A stretch of DNA of 53,782 nucleotides, from the NCBI GenBank assembly GCA_964539775.1, contig CAZIKE010000006.1, positions 8,289 through 62,070 of the forward strand. The letters run 5' to 3'. The position numbers and the translations under genes were made by a program. Positions 1,510 through 3,680 of this stretch are shown in pieces. Positions within the stretch are counted from its first letter, which is position 1. The number at the start of each line of letters is the position of its first letter. The DNA is from an uncultured Chitinophagales bacterium. Lineage in GTDB: Bacteria; Bacteroidota; Ignavibacteria; UBA10030; UBA6906. The notes under the pieces were generated by a model. That model was not told the DNA's origin, did no database searches, and was given only the letters and a program-made list of their open reading frames with translations.

Positions 1510-1533
1510 GGCTGTTACCTGTTTTCGTTTATA
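1510..1533 (+). repeat. 24-bp direct repeat copy 1 (candidate ECF promoter/operator or att site)
   Basis: GGCTGTTACCTGTTTTCGTTTATA; 23/24 identical to 3321-3344; AAC(1507-1509)-N16-CGT(1526-1528) ECF-type spacing. Confidence 0.85.
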
Positions 1534-1548
1534 GAGGTAGGAAGGCTT

Positions 1549-2250
1549 GTGGCCGCACTGTCCACTAAAGCGTTGGTCCAGCAACTGAAAGACGGGGAGC
1601 GGCGCGCGTGCGCGCATTTGGTGGAGCGGTATCAGGCGCTTCTCGTTCGTGAGGCCATGCGCGTGTTTTCTCTTCGCAGAGACGATGCGCAGGAGGTGGC
1701 CAGTGACGTGCTGTTAGCCGTGGTGAACGGAATCCATGACTTCACCTTCAAGCGGGGCGATGGAGATTTTCACCTGTGGGTGATGGCGATTTTCAGGAAC
1801 AAGGTGCGCGACCTCGTTCGGCAGCAGGCCGTGCGTGGGATGGTGGTGGAACTTGACTCCGGCGCTCTGGTGTATCCCTCCGGGGACGGCCATAGCAGTG
1901 ATTCGGAAAGGCTGGAGTATGAAGTAGCACGAGTGGCCTTTCGGAAGTATCAGGAAGCCCTGGTGCAGCACATGGATGGCGTGGTGGAATCCGACGGCGA
2001 CTATGAGGAAACCGGACCTGTTGCGAGAAAGCTGGTTGCTCTTGCCGATGCGTTGGAGCGACTTGAAGCATGGGAGCGGGTGTTGCTGCGGTGCCGTGCA
2101 CTCGACGTTCCCTACGAGGAGATTGCATCGTACACCGGCAAGCCGGTATCGCACCTGAAGGTCTATCACGCACGGGTGCGGAAGAAGTTCGTGAGAATCC
2201 TTGCGGAGTACTTTCCTGAACTGACTGAGCATGAACAACGATTACCTTAG
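1549..2250 (+). CDS. ECF-type RNA polymerase sigma-70 factor
   Basis: sigma2 region (DDAQEVASDVLL...FHLWVMAIFRNKVRDLVR) and sigma4 region (LERL..ERVLL...PYEEIASYTGKPVSHLKVYHARVRKKF); GTG start after purine-rich RBS; long acidic linker. Confidence 0.85.
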   Translation: MAALSTKALVQQLKDGERRACAHLVERYQALLVREAMRVFSLRRDDAQEVASDVLLAVVNGIHDFTFKRGDGDFHLWVMAIFRNKVRDLVRQQAVRGMVVELDSGALVYPSGDGHSSDSERLEYEVARVAFRKYQEALVQHMDGVVESDGDYEETGPVARKLVALADALERLEAWERVLLRCRALDVPYEEIASYTGKPVSHLKVYHARVRKKFVRILAEYFPELTEHEQRLP

Positions 2251-2830
2251 CACACTGCTTCGCATTGCCTGGCTTGAAGGCTTGGTGAACACACGCGGCG
2301 CATACGAGAAGGCTGTGGCGCGGCGTACGGAGCGGGTCCGGGTGTTGCCGCACGAACGCACTGGCCTCATCGAGCGTCTCGAAACCGCTCTCGCAAGCAG
2401 GAAGGAGGCTGCGCCGCTGACTGTTGGTGCGCTGTTGAAGTCTGTGCGTAGCCGCCGTGGGCTGGCGCCGCAAGAGATTTTCGTTCGCATGGGCGTCACA
2501 AAAAACATCTACACCCTGATGGAGCAGGATGCCATCTCACCACTGAAGATCCCCGCCGAAGCGTGGCAAAGGCTCGTGATTCTTTTGAACATTTCGGTGG
2601 ATGAAATTGCCCAAATCATCCGCCGCACGTGCAGGCTCATAGCATACCGGCCGTCCTTCGGTGGGATGCTTGCACGTTACAAGGGCAAGAAAGGGGGGAA
2701 GAAGAAGATCACATTGGAGAACGCTTATGCTGAATTGTACGCGCGCGCAGAGATTCCTCTTCCCCCAGCTGACGAGAAACGGCTGACTGCCCTGCTCTCG
2801 GAGATGCGATTAACGAGCGGAGAGGGCTGA
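2231..2830 (+). CDS. Protein with central XRE/Cro-like helix-turn-helix (candidate anti-sigma/repressor)
   Basis: 'TVGALLKSVRSRRGLAPQEIFVRMGVTKNIYTLMEQD...P' resembles HTH_3; overlaps the sigma gene by 20 bp. Confidence 0.6.
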   Translation: MNNDYLSTLLRIAWLEGLVNTRGAYEKAVARRTERVRVLPHERTGLIERLETALASRKEAAPLTVGALLKSVRSRRGLAPQEIFVRMGVTKNIYTLMEQDAISPLKIPAEAWQRLVILLNISVDEIAQIIRRTCRLIAYRPSFGGMLARYKGKKGGKKKITLENAYAELYARAEIPLPPADEKRLTALLSEMRLTSGEG

Positions 2831-2832
2831 GA

Positions 2833-3333
2833 ATGACACCCGCCGACTCTTCGATGGAAGCGTTGGGGCGGAGTGCGCAAGCTGCGCGGGAACTCCTGCA
2901 AGCCAGCGGCATTGCATCTAACTGTCTTCCTATCAACGTCGAGCGGATTGCGGAGGCCTTGGGGTTTCGTGTCGTTCGTCTCTTCCAGGTGCCGGAAGAG
3001 TTCTCCGGAATTGTCAGTCCTGCCCACCGCCTCGTAGGCATCAACGGAAACCATCACCAGCACCGGCAGCGCTTTACGCTTGCGCACGAGATCGGCCACG
3101 TCGTCTTGAACCATCCTCCCGAAGGCAGGTGCAGCCTTGCCCGCATCAGCCTGCTCAACCGTGAGGCCGATACGTTCGCTTCGGAGCTTCTCATGCCCAC
3201 CGAAACCCTTCTACCGCTTCTGGCGAGGTTCAAGCATCCGGGGCCGTTGTCTCGTCTGTTTGGTGTGAGCGAGGAGGCCATGACTCTCAAAATCCGTCAG
3301 ATTACTCACCATTGGCCGGGGGCTGTTACCTGA
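2833..3333 (+). CDS. ImmA/IrrE family zinc metallo-endopeptidase (Peptidase M78)
   Basis: 'PINVERIAEALG', 'RQRFTLAHEIGHVVL' (HExxH), 'EADTFASELLMP', 'FGVSEEAM' are all hallmark motifs. Confidence 0.92.
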   Translation: MTPADSSMEALGRSAQAARELLQASGIASNCLPINVERIAEALGFRVVRLFQVPEEFSGIVSPAHRLVGINGNHHQHRQRFTLAHEIGHVVLNHPPEGRCSLARISLLNREADTFASELLMPTETLLPLLARFKHPGPLSRLFGVSEEAMTLKIRQITHHWPGAVT

Positions 3334-3344
3334 TTTCGTTTATA
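3321..3344 (+). repeat. 24-bp direct repeat copy 2 (overlaps IrrE stop; upstream of PUR gene)
   Basis: GGCTGTTACCTGATTTCGTTTATA; the single mismatch versus copy 1 creates the TGA stop at 3331-3333. Confidence 0.85.
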
Positions 3345-3396
3345 TCAGTAGAGGGGGAATCAACAACAATCACTACACATCTCCAAGGAGGTCAGC

Positions 3397-3624
3397 ATGG
3401 CACCCGCAAACACGAACTCGCTTTACTCGACAATGCTCAAGTCGGGCAAGACAACGTACTTCGTGGATGTGAAGGAAGCGAAGAACGGGAACAAGTATCT
3501 CTCGATTTCCGAGAGCAGCATACAGGGCGAGGAACGCAAACGCTCTACCGTACGCTTCTTTGGCGACACAATCGAGCAGTTCCGCAAGGCGGTGGAGGAA
3601 GCTGCCGAGACGGCGAAAGGGTGA
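3397..3624 (+). CDS. PUR-domain / DUF3276 ssDNA/RNA-binding protein
   Basis: 'YSTMLKSGKTTYFVDVKEAKNGNKYLSISES...KRSTVRFF...F' matches the single PUR repeat pattern; AAGGAGG RBS. Confidence 0.85.
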   Translation: MAPANTNSLYSTMLKSGKTTYFVDVKEAKNGNKYLSISESSIQGEERKRSTVRFFGDTIEQFRKAVEEAAETAKG

Positions 3625-3636
3625 TGTGACCCTTCC

Positions 3637-3680
3637 AACAAGGAGGGTGGTGCTTGTCTTTCGGGCCGCCCTCTTGTTTG
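3637..3680 (+). terminator. Probable intrinsic terminator after the PUR gene
   Basis: AACAAGGAGGGTGGT pairs with GCCGCCCTCTTGTT (one bulge); T-rich 3' arm. Confidence 0.55.

Follow-up and report, generated by a model that had tools for sequence, protein, structure and literature searches.

How might a sigma factor, a helix-turn-helix (HTH) protein and a zinc peptidase, encoded one directly after the other, work together as a single regulatory device? The question is raised by a stretch of 53,782 nucleotides from an uncultured Chitinophagales bacterium (GTDB class Ignavibacteria; contig CAZIKE010000006.1, positions 8,289 to 62,070; here called the window), in which genes for a sigma factor of the extracytoplasmic function (ECF) type, an XRE-HTH fusion protein (the middle protein) and an M78 (ImmA/IrrE/CapP-type) zinc peptidase are followed by a gene for a single-repeat PUR/DUF3276 protein. 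An initial annotation of the sequence had read this cassette as a candidate protease-triggered sigma switch. The observations described here comprise the order of the genes and how far it is conserved, the identities of their domains, a shared motif with its distribution, and an interface modeled in silico, and it is considered reasonably probable that in this cassette a CapH/CapP-type controller acts on an adjacent pathway through a sigma relay.

The four genes are indeed tightly linked on the forward strand. The sigma gene (positions 1549–2250, 233 amino acids, GTG start), called from its open reading frame (ORF) and domain matches, overlaps by 20 bp the ORF of the middle protein (2231–2830, 199 amino acids), which is separated by a gap of 2 bp from the peptidase gene (2833–3333, 166 amino acids, peptidase domain alone); the PUR/DUF3276 gene (3397–3624, 75 amino acids) lies downstream. 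Across related genomes, the order sigma-HTH-M78 is preserved at 15 of 17 loci, the remaining two being cut by contig ends and showing genes that fit, and the co-conservation by which the initial annotation proposed to check its reading is thus borne out. The same order recurs at 18 of 20 loci in named Ignavibacteria and Bacteroidota metagenome-assembled genomes. The distribution of the cassette is narrow. Of 41 related genomes, 16 encode the middle protein: 13 of 24 in one family (f1), both in another (f9) and neither of the two sampled from each of seven further families. Searches with two profiles (A1 and A4) over two samples of 401 genomes of the phylum matched genomes of the window's order only, 11 with each profile, the single exception outside the order being one weak HTH-only match in the A1 search. 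Among 1.84 billion representative proteins searched with the profile, 247 matched at E ≤ 0.001, 22 of them at ≤ 1e-30; the family of the middle protein is small. Its Atlas clusters are likewise small and mostly from Bacteroidota; one bears the label Acidobacteriota on account of 2 members, which is taken as a lead only. Searches of plasmids and phages for the cassette yielded no match.

The sigma factor contains sigma regions 2 and 4 alone and passes the superfamily model TIGR02937 (sigma70-ECF, 60 bits, cut-off 42.9), which together identify it as an ECF (group 4) sigma factor. Region 2 is recognized by Sigma70_r2 (34.3 bits, cut-off 24), region 4 by Sigma70_r4_2 at a score just below threshold (25.1 bits, cut-off 25.7), and the profile matches in the PDB are ECF sigmas. 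Region 2 (residues ~24–94) and a near-invariant region 4 (~164–215) are joined by an unusually long linker (~95–160). A weak match to the CAS_III-E sigma model was also recorded (31 bits, cut-off 100). In the ECF classification, the groups ECF130 and ECF201 are placed near HTH proteins, ECF201 being 100% Firmicutes (Casas-Pastor et al., 2021).

The peptidase matches PF06114 (Peptidase_M78) with 70.9 bits (cut-off 22), and the HExxH residues H85, E86 and H89 are invariant among 13 homologues together with the downstream E111, in agreement with the ImmA/IrrE-type enzyme named in the initial annotation. Its closest solved relative is IrrE (PDB, E 3e-6). Among the PADLOC models, capP is matched at E 9.3e-23, with residues 13–160 aligning to profile positions 4–156 of 242, and the RmrA models at E 4.6e-13 and weaker. 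The protein, which ends at residue 166, leaves profile positions 157–242 unmatched, so the C-terminal GAF domain of CapP is absent; the homologous peptidases are similarly 154–172 amino acids long. A GAF domain is lacking in ImmA, too, which is also a short peptidase.

The middle protein consists of three N-terminal helices (residues 3–55), an XRE HTH domain (~63–130) and further C-terminal helices. In the HTH region, HTH_31 matches residues 66–127 at 23.1 bits, under the cut-off of 27, and the AlphaFold model (mean predicted local distance difference test, pLDDT, 79.8) adopts an XRE fold, which upholds the central XRE-like HTH suggested initially. This domain superposes on the N-terminal domain of CapH (7t5u; Z 7.1, root-mean-square deviation 1.9 Å, 65 aligned residues) as well as on DdrO (Z 6.8) and ImmR (Z 5.9). 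In the C-terminal helices, an invariant A148-R149-Y150 lies ~20 residues past the HTH domain and is retained in distant relatives. In the CapP/CapH pair, CapH is cleaved by CapP between F82 and R83, just past the HTH domain, upon stimulation by single-stranded DNA (ssDNA; Lau et al., 2022, bioRxiv 10.1101/2022.04.27.489752); the arginine of A-R-Y may be compared with R83, before which CapH is cut.

An indication of what the additional N-terminal helices might do comes from structure prediction of the sigma:HTH complex, another check that the initial annotation had proposed. The complex obtained a score, which is the model's own confidence, of 0.83 (median of 0.84, 0.83 and 0.83), and the best of 3 controls obtained 0.00; on calibration, 58 of the 80 complexes with solved structures reached the mark applied, as did 2 of the 110 mismatched pairs. 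At least 83% of contacts were common to the runs, and the pLDDT of the partner was at least 78. The predicted interface lies between residues 5–58 of the middle protein and residues 13–90 (region 2) and 158–215 (region 4) of the sigma factor, and the invariant N-terminal residues A13, L15, G23, E26, V29 and L50 fall within it. Anti-sigma domains grip ECF sigmas in the same manner, contacting sigma2 and sigma4. These models support, at the level of prediction, a middle protein that clamps the sigma factor through its N-terminal helices in an anti-sigma-like fashion.

The initial annotation had noted a common motif before the sigma and PUR genes, and this repeat is confirmed at a length of 31 nt (1510–1540 and 3321–3351, 87% identical). 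The first motif copy (1513–1545, forward strand) reads TGTTACC-N4-TTCGTT followed by TATA and GGTAGGAAGG, and ends 4 nt before the GTG of the sigma gene; the second (3324–3356, forward strand) overlaps the stop codon of the M78 gene and lies 73 nt upstream of the PUR ATG. With ≤3 mismatches allowed, the 21-mer TGTTACCTGWTTTCGTTTATA has 2 matches in the window, 100 shuffles giving none, and exact copies of the 17-nt motif core in the 3.6-Mb genome are confined to these two sites. At nearly every related locus, TGTWACC-N4-TTCGTT stands before the sigma gene and in most cases before the PUR gene as well, with the sigma start codon 32–40 nt downstream of the first base of the motif. A logo of 46 distinct sites reads TGTWACCT-nn-TTTCGTT-nnT-n5-TA-GRGG and is conserved also where the search pattern was free, at T8, T11, T20, T26-A27 and G28–31.

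The motif accompanies the cassette across genomes. The 16 genomes with the middle protein hold 58 motif sites (4 for a reversed-pattern control), and 13 of them have at least two; the 25 genomes without it hold 10 (control 15), and one of them has at least two. The motif also marks PUR genes unlinked to the cassette, as in G040, where PUR lies 72 kb away and retains a strict motif 99 nt upstream, and in G016, where the motif lies 328 nt upstream. The proposal that the shared motif behaves like the promoter of a regulon is therefore supported in silico. In our reading, TGTWAC would represent a −35 element, separated from (G)TA, the presumptive −10 element, by a spacer of 17 nt, an ECF-type arrangement whose geometry would match the Bacillus sigmaX/sigmaM consensus sequences. 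Recognition by the sigma factor appears more likely than recognition by the HTH domain, because the motif is asymmetric and has this presumed ECF-like geometry, because its 5' block becomes TGTCAC in lineages with divergent sigmas, and because clades that have TTCGTT in common diverge in the recognition helix of their HTH domain. Hairpin formation as a general feature of the motif was considered and discarded, since the best stems averaged 5.9 pairs against 5.4 in shuffles (85 sites), with palindromes at some sites in G032 and G040.

Divergent versions of the cassette bear on the same question. Trios in the same gene order occur at four loci (in G120, G394 and G213 and at the metagenome locus L167) whose sigmas are too distant to show up in the tblastn searches that defined the related loci. 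The cargo in G120 is a CBASS (cyclic-oligonucleotide-based antiphage signaling) system consisting of a 4-HFCP-synthase-like gene, NucC and a CD-NTase; in G394 it comprises Multi_ubiq, DUF6791-ThiF and DUF6527 with a RadC-like JAB gene on the opposite strand, and in G213 and L167 DUF2188. In G120, G394 and L167, a TGTCAC-N4/5-TTCGTT variant stands before the sigma gene and again before the cargo, so that TTCGTT is constant and the 5' block of the motif varies from one sigma lineage to another. The 4-HFC-P-synthase-like gene (PF04476; L163, 601–1314, G120:C3), the first after the motif in G120, is unusual beside NucC and a CD-NTase.

In the lineage of the window, the usual cargo is the PUR/DUF3276 gene, which follows the peptidase gene at 11 of the 17 related loci. 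Its product matches PF11680 (DUF3276) with 38.5 bits (cut-off 23.1) and PurA with 18.3 bits, under the cut-off of 25; PDB matches are weak (3n8b and 3nm7, E 0.02–0.03). The ribosome-binding site attributed to this gene is present as GGAGG 7 nt upstream of its ATG. The terminator attributed to it is not substantiated: a GC-rich hairpin followed by UUGUUUGCUU (3641–3680, forward strand) is a possible terminator that is statistically not distinct, a consensus scan after PUR found none, and the hairpin at 3641–3672 folds in a stretch that is no better than its shuffles (z −0.99). PUR genes form a tandem pair in G021 (L053/L057, G021:C209), with a looser motif copy before the first, and likewise in G213 (L054/L058, G213:C11). 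A motif-less PUR paralogue in G023 (L051, G023:C26:22449–25658) starts, as judged by eye, immediately after the end of an apparent RadC-like JAB gene. In G031 (L119, G031:C1:20607–23323, minus strand), PUR comes immediately after a sigma homologue with its motif, there being no HTH or M78 gene; judged from its gene content, this arrangement resembles a naturally occurring “unguarded” form of the circuit.

From these observations a scheme is inferred in which the signal, the cleavage, the release of the sigma factor and its reading of the motif are the conjectural steps. At rest, the 199-amino-acid protein would keep the ECF-type sigma inactive by placing its three N-terminal helices between regions 2 and 4. 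The M78 peptidase would be activated by a stress signal, in analogy to CapP/CapH, IrrE/DdrO and ImmA/ImmR, the precedent in CapP-like systems being DNA damage or ssDNA. A cut after the HTH domain, perhaps at A148-R149-Y150, might then deprive the middle protein of its stability or self-association, again by analogy. The freed sigma would steer RNA polymerase to TGTWACC-N4-TTCGTT promoters, namely that of its own operon, giving positive feedback, and that of PUR/DUF3276, with more genes joining them in relatives.

Several points weigh against this sigma relay. The complex was predicted from shallow alignments of the two proteins (14 and 16 rows), and its score may partly reflect likeness to the many solved sigma/anti-sigma complexes. 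In a family scan of the middle protein, the N-terminal helices matched no anti-sigma Pfam family, and no PADLOC model, capH included, matched the protein at E 0.001; a fold search with the whole model returned matches to the HTH domain alone, the N-terminal helices not having been searched separately. A cut past the HTH domain does not alone explain how the sigma factor would be released from the N-terminus. The peptidase would have to sense a signal without the C-terminal half of the capP profile, which corresponds to the GAF domain (Lau et al., 2022), and stimulation by ssDNA is for this reason not simply transferable to it. Cassette and cargo share a strand, both in the window and in G120, G394, G213 and L167, whereas capH and capP are described as upstream of their cargo and on the opposite strand (Lau et al., 2022). 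With regard to the motif, the invariant TTTCGTT block would fall in the promoter spacer, where it is without explanation, and taking CGTT as the −10 element would leave no conserved −35 at the usual distance. The regulon in the window's own genome amounts to two sites, an adjoining PUR gene is absent at four of the 17 related loci, and in G023 the two best PUR copies have no motif within 200 nt.

The main alternative is that the middle protein is an ordinary repressor of the CapH/ImmR/DdrO type which binds the motif, the sigma factor being merely co-regulated or a downstream activator that is not sequestered, and that cleavage derepresses the operon. Its XRE HTH domain most closely resembles those of CapH, DdrO and ImmR, the peptidase is capP-like, the relatives characterized in the accessible literature are all repressors, and the invariant TTTCGTT is positioned where an operator could overlap the promoter. 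However, the motif is non-palindromic and XRE dimers normally take inverted repeats, the operators of ImmR and DdrO being palindromic. Moreover, the putative recognition helix varies between clades that share TTCGTT, the N-terminal extension of ~60 residues is conserved and predicted to bind the sigma factor at a score well apart from the controls, and G031 retains sigma, PUR and motif in the absence of the HTH and M78 genes. A purely repressing middle protein is accordingly regarded as unlikely; a softer form of the same idea would give it a dual role as repressor and anti-sigma.

Two further explanations would remove either the sigma factor or the promoter from the picture, and both are considered highly improbable. 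Pairs of M78 and Xre proteins have been described as type II toxin-antitoxin systems (PMC10538038), and the match of the peptidase to the RmrA models would also suit a toxin-antitoxin-like or Rosmer-like pair that merely sits beside a housekeeping ECF sigma. Such a chance neighborhood would hardly be expected to keep its order with the sigma gene in four families and two divergent clades, with reading frames that overlap or abut, to be flanked by the same motif as a unit, and to vary its cargo as regulators do; the lack of matches in the plasmid and phage searches also speaks against it. The motif, on the other hand, could be an RNA or ssDNA element rather than a promoter, with the PUR protein as its ligand, for example in translational autoregulation. 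Its T-rich strand is followed by a G-rich run, which at the sigma gene lies where a ribosome-binding site would be expected, and some sites in G032 and G040 contain clear inverted repeats. Against this stand hairpin stems barely longer than those of shuffles, the change of the 5' block along with the sigma lineage, and the divergent cassettes, which have the motif and no adjoining PUR gene.

The proposed sigma relay can be placed among known systems most readily by comparison with CapH/CapP. Pairs of this kind accompany CBASS, DISARM (defense island system associated with restriction-modification), DUF2188 and ubiquitin-like operons (Lau et al., 2022). The likeness consists in an XRE-HTH protein with a CapH-like HTH fold beside an M78 peptidase that matches the capP model, and it extends to the cargo of the divergent cassettes (CBASS, ubiquitin-like, DUF2188), which belongs to the cargo classes of Lau et al. 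(2022). The differences are the ~60 extra N-terminal residues with predicted sigma-binding function, owing to which the HTH domain is not N-terminal, the peptidase without the C-terminal half of the capP profile, an asymmetric and promoter-like target motif and, in this lineage, a PUR/DUF3276 cargo that is not a recognized defense system. ImmR/ImmA of ICEBs1 and DdrO/IrrE of Deinococcus share the principle of an HTH repressor that is cut by an M78 peptidase; neither includes a sigma factor, and ImmR/ImmA is borne on a mobile element, in contrast to the cassette described here, which is chromosomal and syntenic with housekeeping genes. As for LexA, its absence from the window's genome was considered and rejected, as an XRE-HTH gene with an S24 domain is present and scores below the lexA cut-off; this gene (locus L120, G000:C87:5555–8911, ORF 1228–2058, partly masked) encodes a LexA/CI-like protein of 276 amino acids with XRE-HTH and S24 peptidase domains.

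On the side of the sigma factor, ECF pairs of the RseA/sigmaE type provide a precedent for an anti-sigma controlled by proteolysis. Here, too, an ECF-type sigma gene is followed by that of its presumed inhibitor, with a predicted clamp on sigma2 and sigma4 and apparent autoregulation. The inhibitor of the present cassette differs in being cytoplasmic, with no membrane span and with an XRE HTH fused to it, and it would be attacked by a dedicated, adjoining M78 enzyme instead of a site-1/site-2 protease or Clp. In type III-E CRISPR systems, the Craspase-Csx30-RpoE module likewise uses a protease to cut the inhibitor of a sigma factor and ties an ECF-like sigma to phage defense; its caspase-like TPR-CHAT protease differs from the M78 enzyme, and the inhibitors are unrelated. 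DdvS/DdvA of Myxococcus is another case of an ECF-like sigma tied to phage defense, with DdvA as a transmembrane anti-sigma (PMC11506125). A review covers Clp proteases, subtilases and carboxypeptidases that act on sigma itself, its accessible text containing neither M78 nor IrrE (PMC8999054).

The initial annotation knew of no described ECF group with such three-part control, a statement that holds in part. The papers searched, supplementary tables excepted, included none that characterizes a sigma + HTH + M78 trio, and DUF3276 is mentioned once, in a single paper. However, the trio arrangement as such has been seen before, because 24 CBASS-associated capH/capP systems are reported to encode also a sigma70-family sigma factor (Lau et al., 2022). 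This is said there in one sentence, and the accessible text gives no mechanism and does not address the logic of the arrangement. What is new here is the predicted anti-sigma domain on a CapH-like protein, together with a promoter motif that has a regulon, and a domesticated form which drives a PUR/DUF3276 gene.

In some relatives the regulon extends beyond sigma and PUR. G032 holds 14 motif sites (control 0) and G040 holds 9 (control 1). The genes behind these extra sites include IS200-like Y1 transposase and REP (repetitive extragenic palindromic)-associated tyrosine-transposase-like genes, GIY-YIG genes and four-helix-bundle proteins, as well as DUF2851, ORF6N, SocA/Panacea, a ferritin and a 2',3'-cyclic phosphodiesterase; in both genomes, a large protein without annotation also stands behind the motif. 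Beside a Y1 transposase-like gene in G032 (L099, G032:C19:30474–34346), three motif copies with ~60-nt near-identical flanks lie within ~1.2 kb, which looks, from the repeated flanks, like a repeated unit carrying the motif. Integron integrases (TIGR02249, above cut-off) are found behind the motif in four genomes (G001, G007, G016 and G477). As a regular target the integron integrase was rejected: the motif occurs within 350 nt upstream at only 2 of 30 integron-integrase loci fetched from the order, and the link is hence sporadic. Integron integrases occur in 63 of 151 sampled genomes of the order, 60 above the family cut-off, and the window's own genome contains none. A genome with no match to the middle protein (L118, G009:C4:1–1326) nevertheless has one motif before a XerA/integron-integrase-like tyrosine recombinase below the TIGR02249 cut-off.

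These distributions invite a broader proposal, which is tentative and at present rather doubtful, namely that of a class of sigma-relay Cap regulators in which an anti-sigma domain has been added to a CapH-like protein and a single cut would both remove an inhibitor and launch a dedicated ECF sigma. In the Ignavibacteriales, a regulator from defense islands would have been domesticated into a chromosomal stress regulon based on a sigma factor and analogous to SOS, with a PUR-type binder of single-stranded nucleic acids as its constant output, and selfish genes (integron integrases, IS200-like Y1 transposase-like and GIY-YIG genes) would have gained its promoter repeatedly. PUR might even serve as a feedback cofactor and supply the sensing of single strands, because the peptidase has lost the C-terminal domain of CapP.

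The surroundings of the cassette in the window contain no mobile-element gene directly adjacent to it. A family scan identified DinB, a receiver-HisKA protein, thioredoxin and Bax1-I in the flanks, and the initial remark that neither integrase nor phage genes adjoin the cassette therefore stands. The DinB-family gene and the receiver-HisKA hybrid (234 amino acids) occupy positions 179–1371 just 5' of the cassette and are syntenic in many genomes of family f1.

Should the sigma relay prove true, two regulatory logics, that of an M78 peptidase with its HTH substrate and that of an ECF sigma with its anti-sigma, would be joined in one self-amplifying switch, and the sigma factors noted beside capH/capP (Lau et al., 2022) would be explained. 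For defense, the cassette would represent a compact and probably orthogonal set of promoter, sigma, anti-sigma and protease. The distribution of the motif suggests that some integron integrases may answer to a regulator other than LexA. In a mostly uncultured order, CBASS, ubiquitin-like and DUF2188 cargo is apparently transcribed by a private sigma factor, and the bacterial PUR/DUF3276 family gains its first regulatory context.

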